A stretch of 64,000 nucleotides of DNA from an uncultured Gammaproteobacteria bacterium (GTDB lineage Bacteria; Patescibacteriota; Patescibacteriia; Magasanikbacterales; GWA2-37-8), in the NCBI GenBank assembly GCA_964596525.1, contig CAZQUL010000001.1:601956-665955 (forward strand). Reading direction: 5' to 3'. Below the pieces are notes generated by a model. That model searched no databases and was not told the origin of the DNA. It worked only from the letters and a program-made list of their open reading frames with translations. Position 1 is the stretch's first letter; each line of letters starts with the position of its first letter. Shown one piece after another: positions 11,049 through 45,378 of the stretch. A program made the translations under genes and the position numbers.

Positions 11049-11052
11049 ACCT

Positions 11053-11292: not shown

Positions 11293-11394
11293 AAACCTGA
11301 CATTAAACAATCAAAGGAAATCGCCAAATTTTGAGGGGTTCAGCTGGCCTCTTAAGATGGGATTTCTGGCGATTTCCACATCTTGAGAAGCCAA

Positions 11395-11425
11395 CCGAGC
11401 CTCCACAAAGGGGCTCGGTTTTATT
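11395..11425 (+). terminator. Rho-independent terminator-like hairpin
   Basis: ccgagcc / ggctcgg 7-bp stem with a 10-nt loop, followed by TTTTATT. Confidence 0.45.
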
Positions 11426-11496
11426 AACAGACGGACGCTTTCAAGGTCTTTCGTGAGGTCAGACTTAACAAAGAACAATCCGTCATTAATACGCCT

Positions 11497-12342: not shown

Positions 12343-12401
12343 CGCTTATAAGATTTGAGGTCCTGTGAGCGGTCACCGACTCGATAACATAACAAACAAT
12401 T

Positions 12402-14909: not shown

Positions 14910-16463
14910 ATGGCCAAAACATTCCTAACAAAAAAGAATAATGCCAAAAGCACAATCACGGACAATCCGCTTCTTTCGGTAGCGACAACTTTGAATGTGC
15001 TGACTGGCGACGGCTCAAAATATCCGGATGCACCGTTCCATGCGACTTTGTATGCGAGCGATCCTGCAACCAGCGAGATCGTGAAAGTGACGGCAAAATC
15101 AACAGACCAATTCACGATCGAAAGAGCCAAAGAAAACACCACTGCCCAGGAATGGCCTCAAGGCACACGCCTTGAACTTTTGGTCACGGCCAAACTTTTT
15201 GACGACTTGCAGACAAGAACAGAGGTTGTGGTCGCCACTGACGGTTCTGGCGATTATAACTGCGACGGCACGGCCGATCAGACGGAAATAAACGAAGCGA
15301 TCAGTAACCTGCCTGCCGGTGGCGGAATCGTAAGAATCAAAAAAGGAACCTACAACCTGACCGGAATCATTGAAATCTTAAAAAGCAACGTTGTCTTGGA
15401 GGGCGAAGGCTCGGCGACCATATTGCGAGCCGCGAATGCCAGCAACTTGGGAGATATTGTGAGAGTCGGAAACGGAGGCACGACCAGCTACCAAAACATC
15501 ATCATCCGAAAATTCATGATTGACGGCAATCAATCCAATCAGACATCGGGTGCCAGCAGTCCGCTGGTGTTATGGGGTACGAGCTCTTACAAACACAGCC
15601 GAATCACTGTCGAGAACATGTGGCTGACCGGTGCAAGACAAGATTGTATGAAAGTGATTGCTGTTGAGGACAGCGTGATAAGGAATAATTTTATTTATTC
15701 CAATACCGGAGCCGCGATCGGATTGTTTACCACTTCTCAATACATCAGCATCACCGGAAACATTCTGACATCGAATTCCTACGGGGTATACGACAATGCC
15801 TGCAATTACTGCACCATGACCGGAAATGTCCTGCGAAGCAACGGCTACGGTTTCTATGTGACCAACGGCTGGCGAGAAAACATATCGGGCAACACGATAT
15901 TCACCAGTACCAACTACGGTGTGTACCTGATCGGAGCTCAAAGAGTGACCGTAACCGGAAATAATTTCTACGGCGATAACTGGAGCATCGTTGTCGGCAA
16001 CAGCTCAAACATCACCCGATACAACGTGATCACCGGAAATGTCATCGCTTGGCCTACGAGCCAAGGAATCGCTTTGTACTACGGAACAGGAACAACTGTG
16101 GGCAATGTAATCACCGGAAACCATATCTTCGGGGCCGGTGGACATGGAATATATCTCTACGCTTCCTCTTACAACACGATCACTGGCAACGCTATCGACA
16201 ATGCTTCAAGAACCACCACTAACACATCACACAGCATCTATCTCTCAGATAACGGTACGGTTTACTCAACCTACAACGTAATCTCATCAAATAATCTGCA
16301 AGCGACCCAAACCAATAAAGTCGCCTACCACATTCGAGAACAAGGTGTGAGCGATGATTATAACCTTGCGATCGGCAATATCTGCAAAGATGCGGTGACC
16401 GGTCAAATCGGCCTGCAAGGTGCCAACTCTGTGCGAGGTACTAACATCCCAGCTTCGGGCTAA
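14910..16463 (+). CDS. Tailspike / right-handed parallel beta-helix (pectate-lyase fold) protein
   Basis: 517 aa with many tandem degenerate 22-25-aa units (..ITGNxI..N..YG.Y..), typical of PbH1 beta-helix repeats found in phage depolymerase tailspikes. Confidence 0.7.
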   Translation: MAKTFLTKKNNAKSTITDNPLLSVATTLNVLTGDGSKYPDAPFHATLYASDPATSEIVKVTAKSTDQFTIERAKENTTAQEWPQGTRLELLVTAKLFDDLQTRTEVVVATDGSGDYNCDGTADQTEINEAISNLPAGGGIVRIKKGTYNLTGIIEILKSNVVLEGEGSATILRAANASNLGDIVRVGNGGTTSYQNIIIRKFMIDGNQSNQTSGASSPLVLWGTSSYKHSRITVENMWLTGARQDCMKVIAVEDSVIRNNFIYSNTGAAIGLFTTSQYISITGNILTSNSYGVYDNACNYCTMTGNVLRSNGYGFYVTNGWRENISGNTIFTSTNYGVYLIGAQRVTVTGNNFYGDNWSIVVGNSSNITRYNVITGNVIAWPTSQGIALYYGTGTTVGNVITGNHIFGAGGHGIYLYASSYNTITGNAIDNASRTTTNTSHSIYLSDNGTVYSTYNVISSNNLQATQTNKVAYHIREQGVSDDYNLAIGNICKDAVTGQIGLQGANSVRGTNIPASG

Positions 16464-20831: not shown

Positions 20832-22172
20832 ATGTCGCAGATAACAATACAAAAAGGTCAGACCCTTTCGGGAATCGCCAAGCAATACGGCACCACCGTA
20901 AACGATCTTCTGAAAGCCAATCCGACTATCAAGAATCCGAACCTGATATACGCCGGTTCTGCCTTAAATTTGCCCGGATCGCCAACTTCACCCGTTGTTG
21001 CCCCTAAGGCGAGCGTTCCGAGCCCAAGTCCCACCGTGACACCTTCTAAACCCGTAATACCCCCTGTTGCCCAAAATTCGAGCCCAGGGACGAGCGGTGT
21101 TCCTGAAAAGACCACGCTGTATGGAACTGATGTGCCTTCCAACACCTCTTTGCTCAAACAATACCGGTCCGAACTAGGCCTTGATACTTCCTTAAAGAGC
21201 ATGCAAGACAGCCAGACATCCTATCTCGACACTCTCAAGAATTTACCAAAAAAGTCTGATATCTACCAACAGGAGAGAACGAAAAGAGGAATCGATACGA
21301 TGGAAAAGAATTTGCAAAGCTTGGATAACAGGCTGGCGACAATGGAGGAAGCGATCAATAGTTCGGAAAAGGATATCAGAGACAGAATTGTTGGAAGTGG
21401 CGGACTCGTCACCGAAAGCCAAACCCAAAGATTGGTCGCTTCGGAAAAGCAACCGCTTATAGACGAATACAGAAAACTGCTCAATGAAAGAAACAGGCTT
21501 GCAACTCAAATGGGCACTGCCGAGACATCGGCAAAAGAAATTGCCGGTATGCAATATGAGGATTCAACTTTGCCTCTTACTGTCGCCGAAAAAACTCTCG
21601 GATTCCAGAAAGACCAATACAGCGTACTTGGTAACCTGTTAAGCCAAGTATTCGGTGCCTCAGAAAAAGATGTTGCGAACCTGATTGATTCCGCCAAATA
21701 CGGAAAAGAGCAAGAAAAGAAAGAAGCTCAAGACGTTATCGATCGAGCCATAAAACTTGCCCAGCTGGCCAATGATACTCCAGCCGGAACGGTGCTTGAT
21801 ATTGCCGGAACGAAAGTCTTAGGTACAAAGAAATCATCAGGCAGTGGATCGGATGGCGGTTCGGCGAGCGATGTCGAAGCGTACGCATTGGAACTACTGA
21901 ACAACCCGAACTTCACAGCAAGCAATGTCCCTCAGAACATTCGAGCTCAAGTCCTTCAAAAACGAGATCAGATCATAGCTGAAGCAAATACTCAACAGCA
22001 AGCAGATGCGGAGGCCGCCCAAGCACTGAAAGCGAGCCAGCCAAAGATAACAGCCCAAGACTTCGGTGCTGGGGTCAAAGATGTATTCACTCAAAAGATT
22101 CCGAGCCTTGCGAAGTCCGGATACAACACAACCAAGAACTTCTTCAAGGGTCTATTCGGCATCGGAAATTAA
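20832..22172 (+). CDS. LysM-domain virion protein
   Basis: 446 aa. The N-terminal [28 protein letters not shown]...[10 protein letters not shown] is a LysM peptidoglycan-binding domain, followed by a Pro/Ser linker and a long coiled-coil region. Confidence 0.6.
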
Positions 22173-29964: not shown

Positions 29965-30347
29965 AAGGCAGGCTAATATCTTGCCGGTAAAGCCCGGCTT
30001 TCAATGCACACTTATGACGCGATTGCTCTGATGCGTCTACTTTGGCTTTTGTTGGTAACTCAGACTTCACAAATATTCGCGTATGGTCTAAAATGGCCTT
30101 ACAATTTAAATGGCCTAAACCAGGTGAGGCATCTCCCTGGCATGGCCATAAGTCCTCAACAGTAGAAAGCTCCTAGTCAGAGCGCTGTTGAGGCTATGCA
30201 GGGAAACTTGCATAGGTCCCGTAAGGGATCGCTGACCGGGAGCTTTGTGTTTTTCCGGAAGCTGCCTATTTCCAAGTTTTTATGACAAAACAATCATTTA
30301 AGGAAGCTTAAAAATTTGCTTATTAATTTATTTTTTAGCAAGATTAT

Positions 30348-33339: not shown

Positions 33340-34710
33340 ATGAGGTATGTATTTCCAAAACCCGCGTCGGAAGATGATTTTGAAGAAATGGTCTGCGATA
33401 TTTTTTCTCGAATTTTTCAGAATCCCAATTTGCAAAGATTTGGTCGGCGGGGGCAAGACCAAAAAGGTCTAGATATTTTAGGGGGTTTTGCGGGTCAGGA
33501 TTTTAGCGATGGAAAATTGGCCGCTATTCAGTGTAAAAATCATCCTGCTGGCATTAAATCCTCTAAGCTTAGACGAGAGCTGGAAAAAGATTTAAAGAAG
33601 TTTGATAAATCCGGTCTTCAAATTAAAAAATTTTATTTTGTAACAAGTGCCGAGAGTGACAAAGATTTAATAGAGTTTGTTTTAAAGATAAATAAGGATC
33701 GCAAGAAAAAGAGGAAAAGTTTAGTAACTATCCGTTTTTGGAATTTTATTCAACAAGAAATATTTAAATATCAAGATCTGGTTTATAAGTATTTCACAAG
33801 GCTGCTTCCCTCAGAAAAAGGCCTTGATACCTACATTCCTGATTTAAAAATGAAAAATAGAGAGACTCTTGTCGTAAAATACAATGAACTTATCGATAAA
33901 GAAGCCGTGTTGAAAATTCGTAAATCATTAGAAAGAATTATTGAAATTAATCTTAAAAATCTAAAACAGTCTAAAGAATATAACTTATATATAGGCGTTT
34001 CTTCAAAAGAAAATAGTATCTCTGATGGAGTAGTTGATCTGAATATAGATTTTAGCGACCTTTTTAAAACTGAAGAGAATCTGGAAGAAAACTTTCGGAA
34101 TATGGCTTCTTCCCTAAAAGGTCTTTTAAAAATCCTTGATAATAAAATTTTTTCTAAACAGGTAGTTCTATATCTAGAGACTGAGATAAGCCTCGCTTTT
34201 TTACTTGGATTATTTTTTAGGAAATATAAGTTTAACGTTAAGATAGTTTTTAAAGACCAGGTATGGACCACTTCTCAAAATGATCTTCAGTATGTAGACC
34301 CGCAACTTGTTGATAAAAAGCCGATTTTAAAATTTCCTGAAAATGATCAGGGTGGAATAATAGTAGACGTACGTAACGGTGCTGGCTTAGATATTGAGCC
34401 TGAGGTTCAGCAGTATCTAAATTCAATCCCAAATTCTCCCTCAGTCCTCCTGTCTTATAGAGTAATAGGTGAAAGAATCCAAAATAGTGCGCATGCGCTA
34501 TCTTTTGCAAAAGGAATAGCGGATAAAATTCTTCAGCTCAGAATGTGGAATATTAATCATATCCATCTTTTTTTCGCAGTCCCAAAACCGGTCGCTTTTC
34601 TTATTGCTTATTCCCTTAATACTTTAAATAGTAGTTTGCACCTGTATTTTAGAAGCGCAGATCGTACAACTTATTTAAAATCATATACTATCACTAACAA
34701 TACTTTTTAA
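33340..34710 (+). CDS. CBASS Cap4-like effector candidate: N-terminal Mrr-type PD-(D/E)xK nuclease plus a large C-terminal domain (possible SAVED-like sensor)
   Basis: 456 aa. FEEMVCDIFSRIF...GRRGQDQKGLDILGG...AIQCKNH matches the Mrr_cat restriction-endonuclease fold (D...QxK). About 330 C-terminal residues have no recognisable motif. SD-like aggaag precedes the ATG, 8 nt after the lexA stop. Confidence 0.5.
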   Translation: MRYVFPKPASEDDFEEMVCDIFSRIFQNPNLQRFGRRGQDQKGLDILGGFAGQDFSDGKLAAIQCKNHPAGIKSSKLRRELEKDLKKFDKSGLQIKKFYFVTSAESDKDLIEFVLKINKDRKKKRKSLVTIRFWNFIQQEIFKYQDLVYKYFTRLLPSEKGLDTYIPDLKMKNRETLVVKYNELIDKEAVLKIRKSLERIIEINLKNLKQSKEYNLYIGVSSKENSISDGVVDLNIDFSDLFKTEENLEENFRNMASSLKGLLKILDNKIFSKQVVLYLETEISLAFLLGLFFRKYKFNVKIVFKDQVWTTSQNDLQYVDPQLVDKKPILKFPENDQGGIIVDVRNGAGLDIEPEVQQYLNSIPNSPSVLLSYRVIGERIQNSAHALSFAKGIADKILQLRMWNINHIHLFFAVPKPVAFLIAYSLNTLNSSLHLYFRSADRTTYLKSYTITNNTF

Positions 34711-34713
34711 TAT

Positions 34714-35724
34714 ATGGCCTCTCTTAACTCTTCTTTTGAAGAATTTCTCAGTAAAATAGAACCAAATAGCAAAATCCAACAATATGCGCAAAAAGCCCAT
34801 ATTTCGCTTACAGATCATCTCAAAAACGATGCTGAATTTGGGGAATTTGTTGAAAACTCTTTCCTTTACGGTTCTTATAAGCGGCACACTGCAGTTGGCG
34901 ATATTGAGGATATCGATATTTGTCTAATAACAAATTTTAACTCCAACGATCCTTCATTGAAACCAAGCGAAGTTTTAAGAAAGCTTAAAGCATCGATAAG
35001 TAATTTTTATAAATTAGAAAATAATACTGAAATTCAAAGAAAGTCCGTTAAAGTAAAAGATGCTCTCCCCGATAATCCTTCAGTCGAGATTTCGCTTGAT
35101 GTTCTACCTGCAATCGCACCGTATGGAGAAGACGGTGTTTTATTGGTGCCGGATAAAGAATTGGCAGCCTGGGTGAAAAGTGACCCGAAAGCTCATCTAG
35201 CTTATGCCACAAATCTAAATTCGCCAGAAAATAGTAATGGTCGTTACATTCCATTAGTTAAGTTGATGAAATGGTGGTGGAAATATCAAAAGGAAGAGAG
35301 GTGGCCTGGCGAGAAACATAAACCTAAAGGTTTTTGGGTAGAATGTTTAACGGGATTATTTTTTAATCCAAACAAGGAAAATTGGGCGGAAAATTTTATA
35401 GCAGTTCTTGAAGGTGTTGAAAATAGCTATGGTAGTGCATCTGACGTGCCCGCTTTACCCGACCCAGGTTTGCCGGGTGAGAGCATAAAAACAAAAATGA
35501 CTAATGAGGATTTTCAAGATTTTATTGAAGTCGTAAAGAATTCTTTAGATTTAGCAAGAAATGCATATAATGAGAGCGATAATTTTCTAAGCTCAAAATT
35601 ATGGCAGTCAATTTTTGGACATAAATTTCCTCTCTCCGAAGGAAATGGTGGCTCAGAAAATAAGTCGATAAATCCGAGCGTTGGAATTAAACCTCATCGG
35701 CCGTGGCATGCGTATGTTGAATGA
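34714..35724 (+). CDS. cGAS/DncV-like nucleotidyltransferase (CD-NTase, SMODS type)
   Basis: 336 aa. GSYKRHTAVGDIEDIDICL is the pol-beta NTase GS...[DE]h[DE]h motif as found in CdnC/CdnD-type enzymes. Starts 3 nt after the effector gene. Confidence 0.75.
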   Translation: MASLNSSFEEFLSKIEPNSKIQQYAQKAHISLTDHLKNDAEFGEFVENSFLYGSYKRHTAVGDIEDIDICLITNFNSNDPSLKPSEVLRKLKASISNFYKLENNTEIQRKSVKVKDALPDNPSVEISLDVLPAIAPYGEDGVLLVPDKELAAWVKSDPKAHLAYATNLNSPENSNGRYIPLVKLMKWWWKYQKEERWPGEKHKPKGFWVECLTGLFFNPNKENWAENFIAVLEGVENSYGSASDVPALPDPGLPGESIKTKMTNEDFQDFIEVVKNSLDLARNAYNESDNFLSSKLWQSIFGHKFPLSEGNGGSENKSINPSVGIKPHRPWHAYVE

Positions 35725-36403
35725 AAGCGATAAAAAGTGGTTAAAAGAAAAAAATCCAGGATTAGTTATCGAGCCTGATAAAATAACTGGGACCATAAAA
35801 TTTATAGGCGCTTATAGTCCTTCGCTTGATAAATTTTGGCAAATTGAAAAAGGCGTTGTCCCTAGTAAAGACTCCTATATATTAGGGGGTTCATTTTTGG
35901 TGCGTATTCAGGAGAAGGTCGGCCACAGATTTCCCATTCTCTTTTTAGAGGACAGCAAAATTAAAAAAATTCCAGACCGTCATCTTAACTCAGATGGCTC
36001 TGCATGTCTGTATGTTCGTTTAGAAGAGAGTTTTGTTCTGCCTAATTCTGATTTTAAAATTTTTTTTCAACAATTAATCATTCCTTTTTTATACGCACAG
36101 TTATTTTTTGATAGGAAAGGTTGTTGGCCCTGGGATGAATATTCACATGGTTCGGCGGGGATCTTAGAGTCTTTTTTATATTCAAGTGGAAAAATAAAGG
36201 CAGAAGATTGTTTAATAGAGCTAAAAAAATCCAATGATTGGGAAGATGTTAAAAGGATTTTGTCTCAGAAGAAGATTAAAGGCCACTTGACGAGATGTTT
36301 TTGTCCGAAAAAGGATTATTTAAGACGCTGCCATTCCGATGCTTGGAAGGGGATTATAAAGTTGCATGAAGATATGATTGCTCAAAGAATTTTGATTCCT
36401 TAA
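35714..36403 (+). CDS. E2 (UBC)-like protein candidate
   Basis: ATG at 35714 overlaps the CD-NTase stop. About 229 aa. HLNSDGSACLYV resembles the E2 HPN...C active-site loop, and a beta-meander precedes it. Confidence 0.4.
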   Translation: MLNESDKKWLKEKNPGLVIEPDKITGTIKFIGAYSPSLDKFWQIEKGVVPSKDSYILGGSFLVRIQEKVGHRFPILFLEDSKIKKIPDRHLNSDGSACLYVRLEESFVLPNSDFKIFFQQLIIPFLYAQLFFDRKGCWPWDEYSHGSAGILESFLYSSGKIKAEDCLIELKKSNDWEDVKRILSQKKIKGHLTRCFCPKKDYLRRCHSDAWKGIIKLHEDMIAQRILIP

Positions 36404-36431
36404 TTCTTTTTTAAGCAAGAAAAACGTAAGT

Positions 36432-37142
36432 ATGGAATTAAATCTCAAGCCAAAACAGTATTATATCGACCTTTATGATCATGGGACGGTCGATATTTGT
36501 CGGAGGTTCGACAAGTCATCAGCCGATTATGATCCTATGGAACTTAAGAAAAATAAGATATCTAAACGGCAAACGCTCTTAATAGATAAAGGAGCTCGGC
36601 AATGGCTCGTTCATGTGCAATCCGGCGAGCGGCATTTGAATAAGGAAAAAACTATTCGCGAATGGATGGATGCTGATCAGAAGAGAGACGAGCTGTACGA
36701 ATCTGCCCAGCCTCCCGAAGACATCCCTTGCCTCACGTGCCGCAACCGTCTCAAGGTGGCATGCAAGGAACTTTGGACCGAGCACGAAAAAGAAGATCGA
36801 GTTCTTTTCATGTACGACTGCCCCAATAAGTGCCTTCCGCATCGTGCGTTCTTTTCCGATGGTGAAGAGTGGAGGACGAAGCAACCTGCCTGTCTTCGTT
36901 GTGGATCTCTACTCATCCAAGAATCAGAAGATGACGGGCTTAAGCTCATCACCACATCTTCTTGCAAGAAGTGCAGCCATGCCGAAAAGGAGGAGTATGT
37001 CTGGAGTGCAAAGAAAGGGGAAGATATCGACGAGAACTTTGCTGCCGATCGCGACCGCTATTGTATGACCGACGAGGAAGGCAAGAAGTATCAGGATGAA
37101 AAATGGAACATAGAACGCATCGGAAAGTTCATGAAAGAATAG
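36432..37142 (+). CDS. Double zinc-ribbon protein (CLTC/CPNKC/CLRC/CKKC)
   Basis: 236 aa with four CxxC pairs in the C-terminal half. 28 nt after the E2-like gene. Confidence 0.3.
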   Translation: MELNLKPKQYYIDLYDHGTVDICRRFDKSSADYDPMELKKNKISKRQTLLIDKGARQWLVHVQSGERHLNKEKTIREWMDADQKRDELYESAQPPEDIPCLTCRNRLKVACKELWTEHEKEDRVLFMYDCPNKCLPHRAFFSDGEEWRTKQPACLRCGSLLIQESEDDGLKLITTSSCKKCSHAEKEEYVWSAKKGEDIDENFAADRDRYCMTDEEGKKYQDEKWNIERIGKFMKE

Positions 37143-37157
37143 AAAGAAAAGGAAAAG

Positions 37158-37457
37158 ATGCAGGAAGAAAAGCTCAAGCTAAATCCGAAAGGTTTTCATC
37201 TCGATGGTGCCGGATACGCCTGCTGCATTTGCGGCGATCATACGCCCGAAGGAGATAATTGGCATGAAAAGTACGGAATCAAATGCCTTGTCTGCCAGAA
37301 AGCGATCGACGAGGGCGAGATACCAGCGGCTTTGGCGAAGTACAAAGATAGCTGGTACACCAAGTATGATTTTGAGCACTATTTCAACGTGAAGGGTCCC
37401 GCTCTTAGAATGTGGATCAAGAAAGGTGTTGTCAGTCCGCGCATCATCAGTCATTAG
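37158..37457 (+). CDS. Small zinc-finger protein
   Basis: 99 aa with CCICGDH...CLVCQ. Confidence 0.3.
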   Translation: MQEEKLKLNPKGFHLDGAGYACCICGDHTPEGDNWHEKYGIKCLVCQKAIDEGEIPAALAKYKDSWYTKYDFEHYFNVKGPALRMWIKKGVVSPRIISH

Positions 37458-37487
37458 GGCAAAGGCGAGCATGCGCAGGTATTTCTC

Positions 37488-37754
37488 ATGAGAGATAACA
37501 AGAACTTTCTTCCACCGAAGAATCTGTTAAAGAGCCATAGCGTCAACGAGAGAAAGGAAGGTGGAAAGGTCTGGACGCATATGGAACCCTGGTATCGTTT
37601 TGTTGATCCGTATAAGTACCTAAAGAAGTGCAGGATTATGAACTATTTGCGTGTTGTTCCACCCGAAGAAGTGAAGGCTAGGGAGGAGGAAGAAAAGAAG
37701 AAGTATGAAGAGAAAAAAATCCGTCGAGAAGCTCAAAGAAAAATGCGGAAGTAG
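37488..37754 (+). CDS. Small Lys/Glu-rich protein
   Basis: 88 aa. Charged C-terminal tail EEVKAREEEEKKKYEEKKIRREAQRKMRK. Confidence 0.25.
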   Translation: MRDNKNFLPPKNLLKSHSVNERKEGGKVWTHMEPWYRFVDPYKYLKKCRIMNYLRVVPPEEVKAREEEEKKKYEEKKIRREAQRKMRK

Positions 37755-37774
37755 TGTCGCATTTGTCGTATTTT
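37755..37774 (+). repeat. 20-mer tgtcgcatttgtcgtatttt, copy 1 of a duplicated promoter-like motif
   Basis: 19 of 20 nt identical to 45444-45463. Intergenic, immediately after the 37488-37754 stop. Confidence 0.5.
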
Positions 37775-37819
37775 GTTTTTTTCAATTGTTTTAACTATTC
37801 TATTTCTTACTAAATTTTT

Positions 37820-38119
37820 ATGACTCTTTATATCTATGATACAAGCGGCCGAACAGTAGGTTTCCGGAGAGGAAAGTATATTCACGATATGCATGGTAAA
37901 GCCATAGGGCAGATTAACAGGGAGACGCACGTCCACAAGCTCTCAGGAGAATATGTAGGAGAACTCGATCATGACATGGTGGTTGATAAGCATCTGGGCA
38001 ACCTTGGGAATATTGGAAATCCCGGGAATCCCGGTAATCCAGGTTCTCCGGGCAACCCAGGTAGCCGGGGAAGTGTTAATTATGGTTATCCTGATGTTTT
38101 TTCAAAACTTGAAGAATAA
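37820..38119 (+). CDS. Small protein with C-terminal collagen-like G-X-Y triplet run
   Basis: 99 aa. GNLGNIGNPGNPGNPGSPGNPGSRGS is 9 consecutive GXY triplets, encoded by a 9-nt periodic DNA repeat at 37990-38070. Confidence 0.35.
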   Translation: MTLYIYDTSGRTVGFRRGKYIHDMHGKAIGQINRETHVHKLSGEYVGELDHDMVVDKHLGNLGNIGNPGNPGNPGSPGNPGSRGSVNYGYPDVFSKLEE

Positions 38120-38267: not shown

Positions 38268-39278
38268 ATGAATCAAATTAAAATACTGCCGCCCCAACTC
38301 CTGCGCGGTAAAAAAATAGGAATGATTGCTCCTGCGGATCCGGTCAGGGGCGTTTGTGCTGAAGAAGCTATCCAGCGCGGCTATAAGTATCTAGAAAGTA
38401 AAGGATTCCCTGTCGTAGAAGGGGAATCAGTAAAAATTCTCGCTCAAACCCATACTGCAGGCTCAATCCCTCTTCGCGTAAAAGATATTCATGATTTTGT
38501 GCAGCGTGAGGATATCGGCTGCATTATGGCTTTTTGGGGTGGTTTTAATACCAACCAGTTACTGGATTATCTAGATTACGATTTAATTAAAGTACGTCCT
38601 AAGATTTTTATCGGCTATTCGGACGTGACCGCCCTTACTACTGCTATTACAACCAAGACAGGGTTGGTAACGTTTTCTGGTCCGGGCGGGATTTCTTTCT
38701 CTAAGCCAGAACCTTTTGAATATGCCTGGAATTATTTTGAGAAAGCCTGTGTTAAACCTCAAAAAAATATTTTGATAGAAGCGTCGCCGGAGTACGCTGA
38801 TGATCTCTATTTTTTGAGAAAAGATAATGATCGCCGGATCATAAAACGCAATGACGGAATAAAGGTATTCGTTAACGGCAAAGCTAAAGGCGAAGTCGTT
38901 GCGGGAAACCTACAGACACTGCTCGTTTTAAGTGGCACTCAGTACCTGCCGGATATGGCCGGGAAAATCCTTTTTGTTGAGGAAGACGAAACCAGCACGC
39001 CATCGCATGTCGATAGATTTATCTGCCAGGCTAAGCAGTTGGGATGGTTCGAAAAGATCTCCGGAATAGTTTTTGGGCGCTTTACGGAACAGTCCCAGTT
39101 CTCCCCGAATGATTCTTTTGAAGATCTTTTGAAGGAATATTTTTCTCGCGCTCAGTTTCCGGTGGTCTATAACGCCGATTTTGGGCATTCAGATCCGATG
39201 ATTACCATACCAAACGGCGGAGTTTGTTCTGTAGACGGCGGACAGATCAGTTTTGAACAGTCGGTTTCAGCAACATGA
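38268..39278 (+). CDS. S66-family LD-carboxypeptidase / MccF-like serine peptidase
   Basis: 336 aa. GYSDVTAL (nucleophile Ser) and DFGHSDP (His) are the S66 catalytic motifs. Confidence 0.75.
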   Translation: MNQIKILPPQLLRGKKIGMIAPADPVRGVCAEEAIQRGYKYLESKGFPVVEGESVKILAQTHTAGSIPLRVKDIHDFVQREDIGCIMAFWGGFNTNQLLDYLDYDLIKVRPKIFIGYSDVTALTTAITTKTGLVTFSGPGGISFSKPEPFEYAWNYFEKACVKPQKNILIEASPEYADDLYFLRKDNDRRIIKRNDGIKVFVNGKAKGEVVAGNLQTLLVLSGTQYLPDMAGKILFVEEDETSTPSHVDRFICQAKQLGWFEKISGIVFGRFTEQSQFSPNDSFEDLLKEYFSRAQFPVVYNADFGHSDPMITIPNGGVCSVDGGQISFEQSVSAT

Positions 39279-39456
39279 AGTAAATCCGTAAGAGCGCCTG
39301 AAAGATTATAGATTAAAAATACTATCATTACTCCACCATTCGGGCAAGTATACTTCGGGTTCCTCATTGACCTGAAGATAAATGCATTGTAGTTTTTCTT
39401 GTGCGGCAATCGATGAACAAGCGCCCTTTTACAACTCTTCAGACAGGTGGTAAATC

Positions 39457-40194
39457 ATGGAATCTCTCGACCGTCTCTATTTCGGCACCTGGCAGTTGGG
39501 AGGGCAGTTCAAAAGCTTTTCTTCCCTTGAAATCGAAGCACTCTTACGCTTTGCTCTTGATTCCGGTATCCGACGTTTTGATACGGCAGCTGTCTACGGT
39601 GGCGGGAGAGTCGAGGAAATGCTCGGCCTCTGCCTTCCGGAAGATGCGGTTATCGTAACCAAAATACCGGCGATCCAAAAACCTGATCTTAGTTCGCCCA
39701 GGCCGATCCAAGAGTGCTACTCACACGATTATCTCTTTAGCAGCCTGGAGAACTCTTTGCGCCGTCTGCGGAGATCTTCCGTCGATACGGTTCTCCTCCA
39801 TAACTGGCTGCCATCATGGTCGTCCGCTGGAAACGAAGTTCTTCAATGCCTGGGTGAAATGAAAAATAAAGGCCTGGTCAAAAGAGTGGGGATTTCTCTC
39901 CCCGACGACTTCGGTTCCTTGCTCGATCAAACAGTCTTATCCTGCATTGACGTCGTCGAAGCCCCGTTTAATCCAGGGCAGCAATGGATCCTAGAGCAGC
40001 TTCCTGACCCGCTTAAGATCAAAAAGGAAGTGCTCCTGAGAAGCTTATTTTGCCAGGGCAAACTGCTTCGTGGACGCTCGGCCGAACCGATACTGCATGA
40101 CGCGCTCAAACTCGGCACGTCGCTCGTCATCGGGATGACAGCTAAAGAACAGATCACTCAGAATATTGAGTGTCTGAAAGGATCAGTCACATGA
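39457..40194 (+). CDS. Aldo/keto reductase family oxidoreductase
   Basis: 245 aa. FGTWQLGG...FDTAAVYGGGRVEEMLG is the AKR N-terminal signature. Confidence 0.7.
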   Translation: MESLDRLYFGTWQLGGQFKSFSSLEIEALLRFALDSGIRRFDTAAVYGGGRVEEMLGLCLPEDAVIVTKIPAIQKPDLSSPRPIQECYSHDYLFSSLENSLRRLRRSSVDTVLLHNWLPSWSSAGNEVLQCLGEMKNKGLVKRVGISLPDDFGSLLDQTVLSCIDVVEAPFNPGQQWILEQLPDPLKIKKEVLLRSLFCQGKLLRGRSAEPILHDALKLGTSLVIGMTAKEQITQNIECLKGSVT

Positions 40195-41426
40195 GTTCCA
40201 AGCAAGAATACTTCGCGGCCGTTAATTCCGAGCCGCTTATTACTATTAAAGGTCGGACTACCGGAGAGGAATTCGCGCTACGCGAATATACCTACGGGGC
40301 CCTTGTTCCTGACAATCAGCACCCTCTTTCCTCGGTCAGTGTCTCCAACAGTTCTCTGAGTATCGATCTGTGGATCGGTTGCGCCTGGCAATGCCGATAT
40401 TGCCATGTTCAGGGAACCTACCAAGATCTGGCGGAACAGGGTGCTATGCCGAGACGCCCGAGACGGCGCAATTCGTTTTCCGTCGATCAAATTCTGGATG
40501 AGCTCGTTAAGCATCCGTTTTTCATCGCCGACGAGACGATTATCAGTATCGGAACAGCCAGTACCGAACCGTTCGCGCCGGGGCCGGTCACCGAAAGCAC
40601 CTTCGAGATCATGAACGCCTTTCTCCGGCGGGAACTCCGGAATCCTTTCTGGATCGTTACCAAAGGCGGCGTTCCCAAGGGGAGAAAGCTCGACTTCGCC
40701 CGGATTTCGAACGTAACCCGCGGGCTTATGCTATCGCTATGCTGGGCTGACAATCCTGATACGATCGAGCCGGCTCATAACAACCGCTTCCTTAATGCTG
40801 CAGAAGCCAAAGAAGCGGGAGCTACTGTCGCTTGGTATATGCGGCCGATTGTTCCGGAATGGAGCGGTAATCGTGATCGCATTGAGATGATGATGCTCTG
40901 GGTCAAAAAATACTACAGCGGCGTCATCGACATGATCGTTCCCGGCGGCTTGCGCTGGACCGAAGGGATTGAAAATGGCTTAGTGGAGATTCATAACCTT
41001 CCTATGCCCAGTATCCCTCGGGATGACAACGTGAAATCCCTGCCACAAGAATTGGTGGATGCGATTTTCTCGCTGAGCGCTGAGCATTTTCCGGGTATTC
41101 CGGTCTATCTCAAATCGTCATGTGCCCTTACGCGAATGCTGAAAATTCCAAGCATCACCTCGGTGCAGGTTTTCGCTCGGCAGGAATGTGAGTCGTCTCA
41201 CTGTCCTCTAGCCCAGCGTCAAATCTGTGCTCAAGGAGCAGCGTACACCATGACAACTGAGCGGGCACAGAGCGTTCTTGATGCGCTGGGAATTCCGGCA
41301 TGTGTCGTAAGTTGGGACGCTCACCGCGGACTTGTTACCCATCCTGAGATGAGTAATTTCAGCTATGCGGTCAGGCAGACGGTATTCAAACATCTGGCAC
41401 GAGGAGGCCTTCATGAAGTTCTCTGA
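40170..41426 (+). CDS. Radical SAM enzyme (SplB-like CxxxCxxC)
   Basis: 418 aa. GCAWQCRYCHV is a CX3CX2C cluster motif. The start may be at the internal Met at 40191. Overlaps the AKR stop. Confidence 0.7.
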   Translation: MSERISHMSSKQEYFAAVNSEPLITIKGRTTGEEFALREYTYGALVPDNQHPLSSVSVSNSSLSIDLWIGCAWQCRYCHVQGTYQDLAEQGAMPRRPRRRNSFSVDQILDELVKHPFFIADETIISIGTASTEPFAPGPVTESTFEIMNAFLRRELRNPFWIVTKGGVPKGRKLDFARISNVTRGLMLSLCWADNPDTIEPAHNNRFLNAAEAKEAGATVAWYMRPIVPEWSGNRDRIEMMMLWVKKYYSGVIDMIVPGGLRWTEGIENGLVEIHNLPMPSIPRDDNVKSLPQELVDAIFSLSAEHFPGIPVYLKSSCALTRMLKIPSITSVQVFARQECESSHCPLAQRQICAQGAAYTMTTERAQSVLDALGIPACVVSWDAHRGLVTHPEMSNFSYAVRQTVFKHLARGGLHEVL

Positions 41427-42537
41427 AGACGCCCAGCGTCACTTCCAACGTTTCGGTTTCGAGTGGCAGGAGGGCGGCCCGATCGTGAGCGCTAATTCCA
41501 AGCTCTTGTTCAATATCTCCGGAGGGGTCGTATTCGAGGAAGCGATCTGCTACGGAGCCGCTCCTACAAAACGGCGCGTGGTATCGGTTCAGACCTGCCT
41601 CAGAACGGACGGCTGGGAAAAGATTGGGCTGTCCGGCCGACACCATCTGGCTTTCGACATGCTCGGTCACTTCTCTCTGTATGAGAAGGGTGGACGTGAA
41701 ACGAAAGAACTGATGATTGAGAGCGCCTGGCGCTATCTGACAGATTTTTTAGAGATTAGTTCTAACAGTCTGTCAGCGACCGTTCATCCCGGTGACCACG
41801 TATCGTCAAAGATATGGGAGAGCTTGGGAGTTAAGACGGTGCTCAACGATGGGAACATCTCGCACACTCCCGCCAGAAACCGTTGCGGCATGCGCACGGA
41901 AATCGTCTGGAAAAATCCGAGTACGCAGCGACCCATCGAGCTGTGGAACTTAGTCTTCACGGAGTTCGAGGGTACCACGCTCTTTGAGTGCCCGCTTTCC
42001 ACAATCGCCGCTGATTCCGGGGCAAGTATCGATCGCATCGTTACGGCAGTCGAATGCTGTTCTAGCGACTACGATAACTCGAACTGGAAGAGTGTCGTTA
42101 GTTTCCTCTCCGAGCTGTCCCGGATTAACGACCGAGCTCTCGCGTGCCGATTGGCTGATCTTGGTAAAGCGGCAACACTGCTGATGGGAGAAGGGCTTCG
42201 ACCGGGAAACCGAGCGGCAGAATATGTCCTTCGGAAAATCATCCGTGAAGCCCTTGTCCTGTGCCAGCAAGCATCTATCCCAGCTGGGGACTTCGCAACA
42301 GTGATGGCAGAACGTTGGGATTCCTCTCAAACAGCGCAAGCCGCGTTTGTCGAAGAGGCAGTCAGATTCGAAAAAGCCCTGGATCGGGGAAGAAAAGAAC
42401 TGGCAAAGCTCTCTGTCCGCCGGAATGGCCCTCTCACCGAACAAGACGTTGAATACCTTGCATCCACGTTCGGTTTTCCTAAAACTCTCATCAAGTTCGG
42501 AGAATCCAAACGGGAGACGGGGGAACACAATGAATAA
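41413..42537 (+). CDS. Stand-alone alanyl-tRNA synthetase catalytic-domain paralogue
   Basis: ATG at 41413 follows a ggagg SD and overlaps the rSAM stop. RHHLAFDMLGHFSL matches AlaRS RHHTFFEMLGNFSF, CGMRTEIVW matches GPCGPCTEIF, ELWNLVFTEF matches EIWNIVFMQF, and IAADSGASIDRI matches VDTGMGLERI (Ala-binding Asp conserved). No editing or C-Ala domains. Confidence 0.7.
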   Translation: MKFSEDAQRHFQRFGFEWQEGGPIVSANSKLLFNISGGVVFEEAICYGAAPTKRRVVSVQTCLRTDGWEKIGLSGRHHLAFDMLGHFSLYEKGGRETKELMIESAWRYLTDFLEISSNSLSATVHPGDHVSSKIWESLGVKTVLNDGNISHTPARNRCGMRTEIVWKNPSTQRPIELWNLVFTEFEGTTLFECPLSTIAADSGASIDRIVTAVECCSSDYDNSNWKSVVSFLSELSRINDRALACRLADLGKAATLLMGEGLRPGNRAAEYVLRKIIREALVLCQQASIPAGDFATVMAERWDSSQTAQAAFVEEAVRFEKALDRGRKELAKLSVRRNGPLTEQDVEYLASTFGFPKTLIKFGESKRETGEHNE

Positions 42538-43288
42538 TAATCTTGTCTTCGAACTGGGCGACGTCTTGCGTGGCCTGCCTGGTATCCAGCTGCTCTTACA
42601 GGTCGGGCTACAGAGGGATAACGAGAAAGATAAAGTCGATTTACTGGCAGGTTGCGCTCGGGGAAGTATCGAGGGGTATGCTAGCCCTGTCCAGTCACTG
42701 CTTAAAGATCGGTGGCCGAACGGAACATCGTTCGTTTGCGATGATAGCGTTCGGTTTGACCTGCCAATCGGAACCGGGGGGATCGCCCTGTGTGACTCAT
42801 CCGTGTTGGTGAGCCAAGTCAAAGAGTGGTCTGCGGGGAAAAATATAAGTGGGCAGCATCGTCCCTGGGCCACTGCGTACTGGGTGCCGGAAGCCTTGTG
42901 CGGAGACATTGCAACGGCGGAGATTCTCTACGACCCCGACAGCACCAGCGCTCTACTGAAAGAACTTGTCGCTGCTTATCCGGTTCCGCTCTCAAAAGCG
43001 ATAACCGACCTGTGCGTGGATGAGCTGAGGCAGAAGATGCAAACGTCCGAAAGACTGCTTGATGGGGATGGGTTGGTTGAGCTGGAGCTATGCATTTCAG
43101 ACGTGGTTGCCGCGCTAGTCCGGCTGGCGTTCGCTCGTAGCCGCGTATATTTCCGCGGTTTCCGATCGCTTGAACAGCAGGCAAGATTGCTTAAGCCAGC
43201 TGATCTCGCCCTCTACCACCTTGCCATAAAGCTATCCGGTAGGAAGAAAGTAAAAAATCTCCTGAAGAACATCCGGGAGATTCTCTAA
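42530..43288 (+). CDS. Hypothetical protein (possible NTase/helical-domain protein)
   Basis: About 252 aa starting at MNNNLVF, overlapping the previous gene's stop. No firm motif. Confidence 0.35.
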   Translation: MNNNLVFELGDVLRGLPGIQLLLQVGLQRDNEKDKVDLLAGCARGSIEGYASPVQSLLKDRWPNGTSFVCDDSVRFDLPIGTGGIALCDSSVLVSQVKEWSAGKNISGQHRPWATAYWVPEALCGDIATAEILYDPDSTSALLKELVAAYPVPLSKAITDLCVDELRQKMQTSERLLDGDGLVELELCISDVVAALVRLAFARSRVYFRGFRSLEQQARLLKPADLALYHLAIKLSGRKKVKNLLKNIREIL

Positions 43289-43319
43289 TATGGAGGCCTA
43301 CAACCGTACGCCTCCTTTT

Positions 43320-43925
43320 TTATTTGAGCATAATTTTTTGGCCATTTTTTATAAACACGGCTTGAGAGTTGTTTATCCGCTCAACGACCACTCCATGTTT
43401 TTTTTCAAAGACTTTCGTTCTCTCCTCTAGTTCGGAAGAATAATGGGGGAGAATGGTAGTGTCTACTAAATCAAGTCCCACTAATTCTTTCAGACTGAGG
43501 TCGTTCTTGTCATCTAATACCTCACCGGCGATCTCGATGGATGGACCGAGAATAATGCTCCCCGCACTTACACCGATATATATGCCATCTCTTTCCAAGA
43601 GATTTTTGATAGCGTCTTTAAAATGGGTTTCCCGTGCGAATTTAAGAAGCTTAAAGGTATTGCCCCCGCAAACGTAGATTATTCCATATTTTGAAAAATC
43701 CCGGGCAGGCTCTGTTTCAAGATCAGTAAATTCAATATCTTTAAATCCAAGATCAGCAAATTGCTTATGTGCCAGTTGGGAGTATTTATTAAGCTCCTTT
43801 CCGTCAGCTGCTGTGGTGATAATAGCCACTGGTTCTCTTTTCTCTAGAGTAAGGCTTTTTAGCTGTTGAACGACCGTGTCGGCAGAGAGGCCGGTAGAGG
43901 TTAGTAGAAGCGCTCCATAATTCAT
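43320..43925 (-). CDS. Peptidase E-like (S51 family, class I glutamine-amidotransferase-like fold) dipeptidase
   Basis: 201 aa. ...YVCGGNTFKLL...GVSAGSII... matches the S51 Ser/His nucleophile-elbow context. Confidence 0.65.
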   Translation of the reverse strand: MNYGALLLTSTGLSADTVVQQLKSLTLEKREPVAIITTAADGKELNKYSQLAHKQFADLGFKDIEFTDLETEPARDFSKYGIIYVCGGNTFKLLKFARETHFKDAIKNLLERDGIYIGVSAGSIILGPSIEIAGEVLDDKNDLSLKELVGLDLVDTTILPHYSSELEERTKVFEKKHGVVVERINNSQAVFIKNGQKIMLK

Positions 43926-44085
43926 AGGTTTTTGTGTAAGCGATCGGTAGAGATTTGAGTTTATAGTATAAAATAAGGCTTAAAAAGAAACAAACATTTG
44001 AACGCTTATCTTTTTAATTGTTATTATCAAAGCCCTGTGCTACCATCGTCTCGGCTGGTAAATCTCAGAAGGAAGGAATGCCGCC

Positions 44086-45378
44086 ATGAAGGTACCGTAT
44101 AAAACGACCGAAGAAGTGCGACAGACGTTTCTGGGCTATTTTCTCAAGCACGACCATCAGCTCGTGGAGCCATCAGGGATCATTCCGAAGAATGATCCGA
44201 CGCTCATGTTCATCAACTCAGGCATGGCTCCGCTTAAGCCCTATTTCCTCGGCCAAGCGAAGCCGCCCTATCCGCGCCTCACGAACGTACAGGATTGTAT
44301 CAGATTTGTGGACGTTGAGAGCGTCGGCGACTCTTACCACGGAACCAGCTTCCGCATGATGGGTTCCTGGTCTTTCGGAGACTACTTCAAGGAACGGGCC
44401 ATCGAGCTCGCCTTCGAACTGATTACCGTTGGATTCGGCATTCCCGCCGACCGTCTCTGCGCCACTGTATTCATGGCTGACGAAAGTCTGCCGGGAGTTC
44501 CGAGTGATGAAGAATCTGCGCGCATCTGGGAGAAATTCCTGCCGCGGGATCGAATCATCGGGCGTCCGCCTGCCGACAACTTCTGGGGTCCGGCTGGAAC
44601 AGCTGGCCCCTGCGGCCCGTGCACCGAAATATTCTTCGATCGCGGCAAGGAATTCGCCGAGAAAGAAACTGATGACGCGCTTGTCCCCGGGCGGCACATC
44701 GAGATCTGGAACGCCGGAGTGTTCATGCAGTACTTCAAGGACGAGCAGGGAAATTTCACCCCGCTGCCCATAAAGTGCGTGGATACCGGAGCCGGGCTGG
44801 AGCGGTTCGCCATGATTCTCCAAGACCGCGCTTCGATCCACGAGATTGACCAGTATGATTCGTCCTACCAGCTCATCCATCAGAAGATCGGCGATGCGGT
44901 ATGGACGCGGATCATCCTCGATCACCTCAAGACGTCGATTATGATGCTCCGCGAGGGTATCATTCCGAACAACACTCGGGAGGGATACCTTCTGCGCCGC
45001 GCTCTCCGGCGAGCGATGATCGGCATGTTCCTGCGAGGGGTCAGCCTGAGTATTCTTGAGGAGTGGATGGAGTCGCTCAGCCAGGTGATGGACAACAAAG
45101 ATCTGACCATGCGCCAGAAACCGGCTATCGACCGCTGGCTCAGCATAGAACGTGACGGCTTTGAAAAACTGATGCAGCGCAGCAGGAAGCATCTGGACAA
45201 AATCGCCTCAGCTAAAGAACTGGACGCGCACTATGCTTTCACGCTCAAGACCGGCATGGGAATTCCCGAAGACCTGCTAGAGGAATTTTGCCTTCGCCAG
45301 GGCATCGCTTTTCCTAAAGCCGGTTTCCTCCGGCTTATCGAGGAGCATAAAGACATCTCTCGGCAGCCGAAAAAATAG
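44086..45378 (+). CDS. alaS: Alanyl-tRNA synthetase N-terminal fragment (aminoacylation plus tRNA-recognition domains only)
   Basis: 430 aa collinear with E. coli AlaRS residues 1 to about 460: FINSGM, HGTSFRMMGSWSFGDYFK, NFWGPAGTAGPCGPCTEIF, EIWNAGVFMQY, VDTGAGLERF. Ends before the editing domain and is diverged at normally invariant positions. Confidence 0.75.
   Translation: MKVPYKTTEEVRQTFLGYFLKHDHQLVEPSGIIPKNDPTLMFINSGMAPLKPYFLGQAKPPYPRLTNVQDCIRFVDVESVGDSYHGTSFRMMGSWSFGDYFKERAIELAFELITVGFGIPADRLCATVFMADESLPGVPSDEESARIWEKFLPRDRIIGRPPADNFWGPAGTAGPCGPCTEIFFDRGKEFAEKETDDALVPGRHIEIWNAGVFMQYFKDEQGNFTPLPIKCVDTGAGLERFAMILQDRASIHEIDQYDSSYQLIHQKIGDAVWTRIILDHLKTSIMMLREGIIPNNTREGYLLRRALRRAMIGMFLRGVSLSILEEWMESLSQVMDNKDLTMRQKPAIDRWLSIERDGFEKLMQRSRKHLDKIASAKELDAHYAFTLKTGMGIPEDLLEEFCLRQGIAFPKAGFLRLIEEHKDISRQPKK

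Follow-up and report, generated by a model that had tools for sequence, protein, structure and literature searches.

The DNA analysed here, called the window below, is a 64,000-nucleotide stretch of contig CAZQUL010000001.1 (assembly GCA_964596525.1, positions 601,956 to 665,955 of the forward strand), which was deposited under an uncultured gammaproteobacterium and is assigned by GTDB to the Patescibacteriota (Magasanikbacterales, GWA2-37-8). The listing of open reading frames (ORFs) together with Pfam and NCBIfam scans placed seven genes at positions 38268-45378, and two of them encode truncated proteins related to alanyl-tRNA synthetase (AlaRS). This cluster, its relatives in other genomes and its possible function are the subject of this report. 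The genes and a hairpin that follows them are:

38268..39278, plus strand: predicted S66 peptidase of the MccF type, 336 amino acids (aa), with the Pfam Peptidase_S66 N- and C-terminal domains
39457..40194, plus strand: short aldo-keto reductase (AKR), 245 aa, Pfam Aldo_ket_red
40191..41426, plus strand: radical S-adenosylmethionine (SAM) enzyme, assigned by its CAWQCRYC motif and its fold to the spore-photoproduct-lyase-like (SPL-like) branch, 411 aa
41413..42537, plus strand: AlaL, truncated AlaRS-like paralogue, 374 aa, tRNA-synt_2c 134 bits
42530..43288, plus strand: U251, modelled as an ANT(4')-like nucleotidyltransferase of the Pol-beta fold, 252 aa
43320..43925, minus strand: S51 (PepE-like) serine peptidase, 201 aa, Pfam Peptidase_S51
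44086..45378, plus strand: mini-AlaRS, catalytic and tRNA-recognition core, 430 aa, tRNA-synt_2c 342 bits
45397..45425, plus strand: terminator-like hairpin 3' of mini-AlaRS, 12-bp stem and T-run

Among the four middle genes (AKR, radical SAM, AlaL and U251), the stop of one overlaps the start of the next. The letters ATGA (40191-40194) combine the AKR stop with the ATG of the radical SAM gene at 40191; the radical SAM ORF opens at a GTG at 40170, and the ATG start agrees with the 411-aa product of the gene caller. A GAGGAGG Shine-Dalgarno sequence lies 5 nt before the AlaL ATG (41413), which overlaps the radical SAM stop (41424-41426), and the AlaL stop (42535-42537) in turn overlaps the start of U251 (42530). 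By consensus match only, a promoter-like site is seen 5' of mini-AlaRS (43998-44027), and the hairpin, with 8 G-C pairs in its stem, lies 19 nt past the mini-AlaRS stop. An earlier reading of the window made from its letters alone (the sequence-only reading) had proposed an S66 peptidase, an AKR, a radical SAM enzyme, a pair of AlaRS-like genes and an S51 peptidase, with the radical SAM gene coupled to AlaL through a Shine-Dalgarno sequence. All of these genes were found where it had placed them and the coupling was borne out by the GAGGAGG and the overlapping stop and start, but U251 (42530-43288), an integral member of the cluster, had been overlooked. No tRNA gene was found in the 64-kb window, and none of the seven cluster proteins matched a known defence system in PADLOC, despite the nearby genes of a cyclic-oligonucleotide-based antiphage signalling system (CBASS).

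AlaL matched the tRNA-synt_2c profile over positions 9-402 of 552, and scored 136 bits against the NCBIfam alaS equivalog (TIGR00344), the cut-off of which is 457. The Pfam scan revealed neither an editing (tRNA_SAD) nor a C-Ala domain in AlaL or in mini-AlaRS. The AlaL family comprises about 104 clusters of 370-390 aa and has a sharp boundary, with a drop in score from 148 to 72 bits ahead of any true AlaRS. Members with a source name come from Patescibacteria, and related loci are also present in metagenome-assembled genomes (MAGs) of gut Firmicutes. The sequence-only reading had named a phylogeny against bona fide AlaRS as a check; in our neighbour-joining tree (without support values), AlaL on a long branch, the mini-AlaRS family, AL3 (the second paralogue of the type III clusters described below) and the 586-607-aa small-AlaRS each formed a separate clade.

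For the comparison of residues, an alignment set both AlaRS-like families (39 AlaL and 37 mini-AlaRS members) against E. coli AlaRS and canonical sequences of the retrieved loci, and the E. coli numbering used was checked. The functional roles of the residues, including that of D399 as a reader of G3:U70, are those of the AlaRS literature. The equivalents of R69, N212, V214, D235 and G237 were invariant in all 39 AlaL members, and H86, H87, F90, E183, E209 and R242 were also kept. In the tRNA-recognition helix, N302 was present in 33/39 members, and Y307 and R310 were invariant. Meanwhile, M43 was replaced by Gly in 39/39 members and W170 by Thr, Phe or Ser; G239, H286 and Asp399 were replaced too, and the GPCGPC loop gave way to a loop with an invariant Arg. 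This pattern indicates that the contacts to the alanine amino group, the adenine and the phosphate survive and that one wall of the pocket has been rebuilt. The earlier claim that the 374-aa protein keeps its Ala-binding residues is largely right; it holds for the five invariant residues, but not for W170, M43 and the GPCGPC loop. A lack of conserved catalytic residues on full alignment, which the sequence-only reading had named as a refutation, was not seen for most residues. Judged by its full activation site and its equivalog score, AlaL would not count as a bona fide alanine–tRNA ligase.

The 430-aa protein is closer to AlaRS. It matched tRNA-synt_2c over profile positions 1-431 (of 552), scored 253 bits against residues 1-441 of E. 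coli AlaRS (3hxu alignment) and reached 349 bits against the alaS equivalog, again with the cut-off of 457; no match to PF07973 or PF02272 was seen. In Patescibacteria the family numbers more than 120 clusters, with lengths of 420-440 aa, and it carries a family-specific insertion of one residue (WN-AG-VF). R69, W170, GPCGPC-(S/T)E, E209, N212, V214, D235, G237 and R242 were kept in 37/37 members, the window copy included. By score and domains mini-AlaRS therefore falls outside the alaS equivalog, while by its activation-site residues it agrees with AlaRS. As for the pair that reads G3:U70, N302 and D399 (mature E. coli numbering), the Asn was present in 34/37 members; most members, the window copy among them, have Thr, Ala or Ser in place of D399, which type III copies retain. 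The subclade of the window copy has lost the motif 2 Glu as well as Asp399. It should be noted that the mini-AlaRS of Tupanvirus works without the Asn and Asp of the G3:U70 pair (PMC10036535). The Pfam-annotated genes up to about 10 kb from the cluster include no separately encoded half with the editing and C-Ala domains, and no C-terminal AlaRS half was found in the related loci; ORFs elsewhere in the window were scanned only partly.

Several candidate observations on mini-AlaRS were set aside. An 815-aa protein within the mini clade (locus L093; retrieved loci are numbered L), considered as a fusion of mini-AlaRS and AlaL, is a canonical AlaRS cut by the contig end. The apparent absence of mini-AlaRS from L006 is only a difference in gene calling, the DNA being identical to that of L005. 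A metagenome scan with the mini-AlaRS profile was too permissive, as 79 of its 80 loci held a canonical or 590-aa AlaRS and only L091 was informative; a Parcubacteria MAG (L037) provides an example of small-AlaRS. As a separate observation, the gene right after a canonical 867-aa alaS in Caldisericota (L029-L034, at about 9995-13329) is AKR-like and 26-29% identical to the window AKR. This pairing recurs in several Caldisericota MAGs and may be coincidental.

The AKR matched Pfam Aldo_ket_red with an E-value of 1e-26, and its catalytic tetrad D-Y-K-H can be read in the sequence (FDTAAVYG, VTK, LLHNW). Its gene adjoins the radical SAM gene in about 19 genomes. The radical SAM protein has the CX3CX2C cluster motif and the partial TIM-barrel fold of its superfamily; the closest fold is that of SPL, a DNA-repair enzyme that acts on a nucleobase substrate, and the model places the protein in the SPL-like branch. 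U251 was judged by a nucleotidyltransferase fold with a helical domain, a G-S...D-x-D/E metal site and a catalytic Glu-x3-Lys. It models as an ANT(4')-like nucleotidyltransferase of the Pol-beta fold, and the model resembles ANT(4') and LinB, which are small-molecule O-nucleotidyltransferases. Fusions of U251 with AKR (a 493-aa product in gut-lineage MAGs) and of radical SAM with U251 are known, which indicates that the three enzymes act together.

The two domains of the S66 protein were recognised by Pfam with E-values of 2e-32 and 4e-31. Its best sequence matches in the PDB were MccF-like (Lmo1638, 205 bits; Bacillus anthracis MccF, 169; E. coli MccF, 159), whereas entries for LdcA, the murein LD-carboxypeptidase, reached 57-98 bits, in agreement with the MccF-like assignment made in the sequence-only reading. 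The GYSD and FGHSD motifs align with those of Lmo1638, and the protein is, as predicted from its sequence, a two-domain S66 peptidase of the MccF type with a Ser-His-Glu triad. The S51 protein matched Pfam Peptidase_S51 (E-value 4e-27) and, in the PDB, Lmo0363 and PepE. Enzymes of the MccF and PepE types are hydrolytic enzymes of immunity or salvage. The S66 gene lies inside the type I clusters of gut lineages and inside type III clusters. The S51 gene keeps the same position in the clusters of Parcubacteria and is also present in type II clusters and in those of Thermoactinomyces and Priestia. The window is unusual in having both S51 and S66 in one cluster.

To map the gene arrangements in other genomes, tblastn was used. 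About 20 independent genomes have AKR, radical SAM, AlaL and U251 alongside S51 or S66, with 35-85% identity between the proteins and with unrelated flanks, and such a clustering goes far beyond chance. The hosts are Parcubacteria/Paceibacterota, Uhr-, Buchanan-, Nomura- and Yonathbacteria, Saccharibacteria, and Bacilli and Clostridia MAGs from the gut. Look-ups together with a scan of the GTDB species representatives gave 18 AlaL loci, to which others were added from assemblies; type I AlaL looks sporadic (about 18 of 185,579 species representatives). Radical SAM, AKR and U251 are kept in about 19 of 21 independent AlaL loci, and S51 or S66 in 20 of 21. In Parcubacteria and their relatives a divergent mini-AlaRS gene stands beside AKR - radical SAM - AlaL - U251, followed by S51, and type I clusters of the candidate phyla radiation (CPR) usually have S51 instead of S66. 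Saccharibacteria (L024, L025 and L088) contain the same genes rearranged, and MAGs of gut Bacilli, Clostridia and Erysipelotrichaceae show the order [U251~AKR fusion] - radical SAM - S66 - AlaL. Several copies of the cluster are flanked by tRNA genes or a recombinase, and NUDIX or MazG genes adjoin some of them. We found no paper describing these CPR families.

Some of the related loci deserve separate mention. In the complete 943-kb CPR genome CP064996.1 (L174, 7231-13093), all module genes but mini-AlaRS are in fragments. Decay of the module was considered here and rejected; the cause is probably a frameshift error of long-read sequencing, since L175, an Illumina contig from a close relative, has all genes intact. 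A yceG/mltG gene adjoins the cluster in L174, and mltG is often found near alaS in other bacteria. In a gut Clostridia MAG (L018, 4628-8953), a 1441-aa BcrAD/BadFG-type activase with DUF2229 takes the place of the trio of radical SAM, AKR and U251 that would otherwise precede S66-AlaL. A HisKA_7TM histidine kinase stands beside clusters with an AlaRS pair in three unrelated genomes (L003, 12004-16306; L174, 3049-5774; L177, 13815-18443). It is accompanied by a TM1586-type nitroreductase in L174 and L177 and by an MvdD-type ATP-grasp protein in L003 and L177; this neighbourhood may be an adjacent locus for a graspetide-like ribosomally synthesised and post-translationally modified peptide, or a regulator of the cluster.

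Six further homologues of mini-AlaRS, 40-82% identical to the window copy and picked solely by the length of their contigs, were examined for context. A second truncated AlaRS-like gene was present in all six contexts, and S51 or S66 in five, the exception being L088, which had neither within about 8 kb. The clusters fall into three types, given here with their tailoring genes, peptidase, second paralogue and occurrence:

Type I: AKR, SPL-like radical SAM enzyme and U251; S51 or S66; AlaL; the window and about 20 others
Type II: class IV aminotransferase, WelO5-like 2-oxoglutarate (2OG) oxygenase, GFO/IDH/MocA oxidoreductase and YqcI/YcgG; S51; AL2; L089 and L176
Type III: methyltransferase(s), AdoMet decarboxylase and a 370-aa Asp/Lys/Asn-type protein resembling an aminoacyl-tRNA synthetase (aaRS); S66; AL3; L090, L091 and L177

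Between cassette types, mini-AlaRS is 40-67% identical, and the second paralogue 23-29% for most pairs of types and about 35% at most. A type I mini-AlaRS from Saccharibacteria is 66% identical to one of type II, while their partner paralogues are barely alignable. A constant mini-AlaRS with a second paralogue linked to the cassette fits a constant alanine donor and an acceptor-binding enzyme specific to each cassette. Of the residues invariant in AlaRS, AL2 lacks E183, E209 and N212, and AL3 lacks E183; one AL3 copy has D235E, the same kind of change as reported for AcmF of the ascamycin pathway (PMC12945691). A 385-aa gene upstream of mini-AlaRS in L176 was tried as AL2 and rejected, being unlike AlaRS; the true AL2 of that locus is split by a frameshift. 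Type III clusters also hold a third aaRS-like gene, which encodes a class II core of the Asp/Lys/Asn type (368-374 aa; L090, 12339-13463; L091, 13577-14683; L177, 12605-13714). It adjoins the S66, AdoMet decarboxylase and methyltransferase genes, an arrangement reminiscent of the aminopropyl decoration that microcin C carries.

The radical SAM family also includes proteins of Thermoactinomyces sp. DSM 45892 and Priestia megaterium, where the trio of U251, AKR and radical SAM stands together with an S51 peptidase. In place of the AlaRS-like pair, these Firmicutes have an 82-aa PP-binding carrier protein, a class II aaRS-like ligase of 331-335 aa and a condensation-like protein of 403-405 aa (HMLSDG motif; Pfam Condensation, E-value 4e-4). 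ATP-grasp ligases and an exporter of the major facilitator superfamily (MFS) are also among the neighbours and, in Priestia, a MazG-like protein. The layout is that of a pathway for a secreted small molecule. By analogy, an aaRS-like ligase that would load the carrier and a condensation enzyme that would transfer parallel a mini-AlaRS loading tRNA and an AlaL transferring from it.

With a probability of roughly 0.5, we propose that the cluster is a specialised-metabolite pathway joining L-alanine to a small, probably nucleotide-like molecule, with self-protection built in. All of the catalysis, as well as what the product is and what it acts on, we infer from the genes. The SPL-like radical SAM enzyme, the AKR and the ANT(4')-like nucleotidyltransferase would build the acceptor, or 'warhead'. 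The mini-AlaRS would make Ala-tRNA(Ala) for the pathway and, as a divergent spare AlaRS, may resist the product. AlaL would transfer alanine to the acceptor, either from Ala-tRNA, like AcmF, or after its own activation of alanine, and S66 and S51 would hydrolyse the aminoacyl bond in detoxification or maturation. A nucleotide-like acceptor is probable in view of the ANT-type transferase, the likeness of the radical SAM enzyme to SPL, the NUDIX or MazG neighbours, the adenine contacts of AlaL and the MccF-type peptidase. The target of the product would be AlaRS if the analogy with ascamycin and SB-203208 holds. The sequence-only reading had suggested biosynthesis of, or immunity to, an alanyl-nucleoside or aaRS inhibitor, and the paired AlaRS contexts, the Firmicutes cluster and the experimentally characterised ascamycin trio of enzymes speak in favour of this suggestion. 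The recurrence of the cluster, the fusions, the folds and the genomic setting (a prophage and a CBASS island beside the window cluster, tRNA genes or a recombinase beside other copies) also favour the proposed pathway.

A wider and more tentative proposal, which we would rather doubt than accept, is that Patescibacteria and a few Firmicutes carry diversifying pathways for alanyl-conjugated, nucleotide-like 'Trojan-horse' inhibitors of AlaRS, with at least three interchangeable warhead cassettes around a constant core. That core would comprise a 430-aa product-resistant AlaRS, a cassette-specific alanyl transferase derived from AlaRS and an immunity peptidase of the MccF or PepE type. If true, episymbiotic bacteria of ultra-small size would for the first time have been assigned a widespread chemical weapon or means of manipulating hosts.

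A number of observations weigh against the proposed alanyl-conjugate pathway. Most clusters of the gut lineages have no mini-AlaRS, so a resistant AlaRS is not obligatory, and the CPR versions of the cluster encode no exporter or regulator. Unlike AcmF, the type I AlaL keeps N212, D235, E183, E209 and R242, and it may be a true adenylating enzyme, for alanine or an analogue, with a different role. In the U251 of Parcubacteria neither the GS motif nor the first DxD aspartate is present, and this protein may be catalytically altered. To our knowledge, secondary metabolism is rare in CPR genomes, and a conserved cluster of host-like GC content could have a housekeeping role. A nucleic acid as substrate would likewise be compatible with the features of SPL and of tRNA recognition.

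Four other explanations were weighed. The retained activation residues of AlaL (the motif 2 and motif 3 arginines, E183, E209, N212 and D235), its conserved tRNA-recognition helix and its enlarged pocket (M43 to Gly; W170 to Thr, Phe or Ser) would suit a synthetase for a non-canonical amino acid, in which the trio makes an alanine analogue and AlaL activates it and charges a tRNA with it, as PylS does alongside PylB, PylC and PylD; the combination of aaRS-like, radical SAM and oxidoreductase genes recalls the pyl operon. Such a system is improbable here, as neither the window nor 24 related loci contain a dedicated tRNA gene (the tRNAs present are ordinary flanking genes), the carrier, condensation-like and exporter proteins that go with the trio in Firmicutes indicate a secreted small molecule, the second paralogues of types II and III lack activation residues, and the constant mini-AlaRS and the peptidases are left unexplained. 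Salvage or detoxification seems about equally improbable. Here, the peptidases and the reductase would degrade an imported aminoacyl-nucleoside, peptide antimetabolite or cell-wall peptide, and the AlaRS-like proteins would serve as decoys or resistant targets. It would agree with the immunity or salvage role of MccF- and PepE-type hydrolases, with the dependence of CPR bacteria on scavenging and with the defence genes beside the window cluster. Nevertheless, the coupled radical SAM enzyme, the nucleotidyltransferase and the two enzymes of the adenylate-forming type are anabolic in character, and the fusions within the trio as well as the variant with carrier and condensation-like proteins suggest assembly.

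A little less probable still is a housekeeping role, in which the 430-aa protein is the sole AlaRS of the cell, minimal or split, and its neighbours are unrelated or loosely linked. The protein keeps every activation residue of AlaRS and is more conserved than its partners, no other alaS was seen among the scanned ORFs of the 64-kb window, and the 1-441 fragment of E. coli AlaRS is active without the editing and C-Ala domains, as is the mini-AlaRS of Tupanvirus (PMC10036535). This role is opposed by the second AlaRS-like gene in 6/6 of the further mini-AlaRS contexts, by the seemingly sporadic distribution of the family (judged by the type I AlaL count among GTDB species representatives), by its genomic positions, which are not syntenic, by the missing Asp399 of the window copy and by the lack of a C-terminal half (editing and C-Ala) encoded nearby; the mini family also forms a clade of its own, apart from the small-AlaRS of CPR bacteria (bioRxiv 10.1101/2023.05.29.542759). 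We regard modification of a macromolecule as similarly improbable. In this case AlaL, like EpmA/PoxA or GluQRS, would attach alanine or a derivative made by the radical SAM enzyme and AKR to a protein or tRNA. An aaRS paralogue paired with a radical SAM enzyme is known from the beta-lysylation of EF-P (EpmA and EpmB), AlaL retains the tRNA-recognition domain, and the closest fold of the radical SAM enzyme is a DNA-repair enzyme. Against this stand the halogenase-like 2OG oxygenases, aminotransferases, AdoMet decarboxylase and methyltransferases of the variable tailoring cassettes, as well as the carrier, the condensation-like protein and the MFS exporter of the Firmicutes version. In addition, nucleotidyltransferases of the ANT type act on small molecules, and the MccF-type peptidase would have no obvious role.

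A specialised-metabolite cluster with swappable cassettes would matter because Patescibacteria have tiny genomes to which little specialised metabolism has been assigned, and it would give them a plausible chemical action on hosts or competitors. The recently discovered logic of AcmD and AcmF, an aaRS-derived transferase next to a resistant aaRS, would no longer be confined to a single Streptomyces pathway but would apply to a broad family. Studies of minimal tRNA(Ala) recognition and of inhibitor resistance could make use of the 430-aa protein as a natural AlaRS core. The analysis also defines AlaL, the SPL-like radical SAM enzyme and the ANT-like U251 as three unannotated families, each with a fold of high confidence. 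Since Thermoactinomyces sp. DSM 45892 and Priestia megaterium are in culture and have the warhead trio, the chemistry is directly testable.

In the window, the surroundings of the cluster are mobile or defensive upstream, and core genes such as uvrA lie downstream. A prophage-like block at 5333-27000 has a strongly positive AT skew (0.13-0.27) and contains several large ORFs without a Pfam match. The features recognised upstream of the cluster are:

1325-2878, minus strand: HsdM gene of a type I restriction-modification system, preceding the prophage block
5333-6352: Dam-like methyltransferase, likewise preceding the prophage genes
9180-11048: SU10-type portal, prophage block
12402-13625: SU10 major capsid protein, prophage block
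14910-16463: beta-helix tail protein, prophage block
20832-22172: LysM protein, prophage block
30112-30230, plus strand: LOOT RNA (Rfam RF03000), 78.5 bits, full-length, intergenic between the prophage block and the CBASS genes

The CBASS-like pair (33340-35724), an effector with a SAVED domain (456 aa) and an SMODS nucleotidyltransferase (336 aa), forms an island of low GC (0.36). It is followed by five small genes without a recorded Pfam match (35681-38119). Immediately 5' of the S66 gene lies a 99-aa ORF (37820-38119) with a Gly-Asn-Pro repeat at its end (GNLGNIGNPGNPGNPGSPGNPGS).

Among known systems, the closest precedent for the window cluster, by analogy, is the set of AcmD, AcmF and AcmE from the ascamycin pathway of Streptomyces sp. 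80H647 (Zheng et al. ACS Catal 2024, reviewed in PMC12945691). In that pathway Ala-tRNA(Ala) is made by AcmD, an additional AlaRS copy to which the product does no harm. AcmF resembles AlaRS but is truncated, with no domains beyond those for aminoacylation and tRNA recognition. It is an Ala-tRNA-dependent transferase; it puts alanine on the sulfamate amine of an adenosine analogue that sits in the former ATP site, and it has N219Q and D232E at residues that form Ala-AMP. AcmE is a hydrolase that takes the alanine off again (PMC12945691). Compared with the published description of AcmF, AlaL is likewise cut down to the aminoacylation and tRNA-recognition domains, and the second paralogue likewise lacks the Asp of the Asp and Asn that read G3:U70. 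The window also has a co-clustered AlaRS copy (44086-45378) and, in S51 and S66, candidate hydrolases for removal of the alanine. The differences are that the spare AlaRS is itself truncated (430 aa), that N212 and D235 are both present in all 39 members of type I AlaL, although the partners of types II and III do show losses, and that the hydrolases are serine peptidases of the S66 and S51 families and not, like AcmE, a secreted alpha/beta hydrolase. Moreover, the acceptor-building genes (radical SAM, AKR and ANT-like) are unrelated to the biosynthesis of sulfamoyl-adenosine, and the hosts are Patescibacteria and Firmicutes; no Streptomyces match was present among 114 AlaL homologues.

With microcin C the window shares an S66 peptidase that is nearest to the MccF structures and adjoins adenylate-forming enzymes, but its cluster contains no MccA peptide, no MccB (ThiF-like) and no MccC. 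A further likeness is to the amino acid:[carrier protein] ligases, reportedly truncated class II aaRS homologues resembling SerRS that load a carrier with an amino acid for use outside the ribosome (attributed to Mocibob et al., PNAS 2010). A similar pair of aaRS-like ligase and carrier sits with the trio in Thermoactinomyces and Priestia, whereas the window has no carrier protein and its aaRS-like enzymes are derived from AlaRS. As these enzymes keep the tRNA-recognition domain and no carrier protein is present in the window, tRNA is likely the carrier.

With regard to short AlaRS enzymes, that of Tupanvirus is eukaryotic in origin and stands alone (PMC10036535), and the small-AlaRS of CPR bacteria, of roughly 590-607 aa, retain the editing domain (bioRxiv 10.1101/2023.05.29.542759). 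The 430-aa family differs from both in being bacterial, in forming its own clade and in being always paired with a second AlaRS-like gene where sampled. The idea of an aminoacyl transferase derived from an aaRS is shared with SbzA of the SB-203208 pathway, an IleRS-like protein that moves its cognate amino acid from the aminoacyl-tRNA to a small-molecule amine in the making of a product that inhibits IleRS (PMC12945691); SbzA is, however, a full-length class I protein from an actinomycete and acts on a sulfonamide acceptor. More generally, an aaRS gene within a biosynthetic cluster is reported to point either to a resistant target or to a step that depends on tRNA (bioRxiv 10.64898/2025.12.02.691738).

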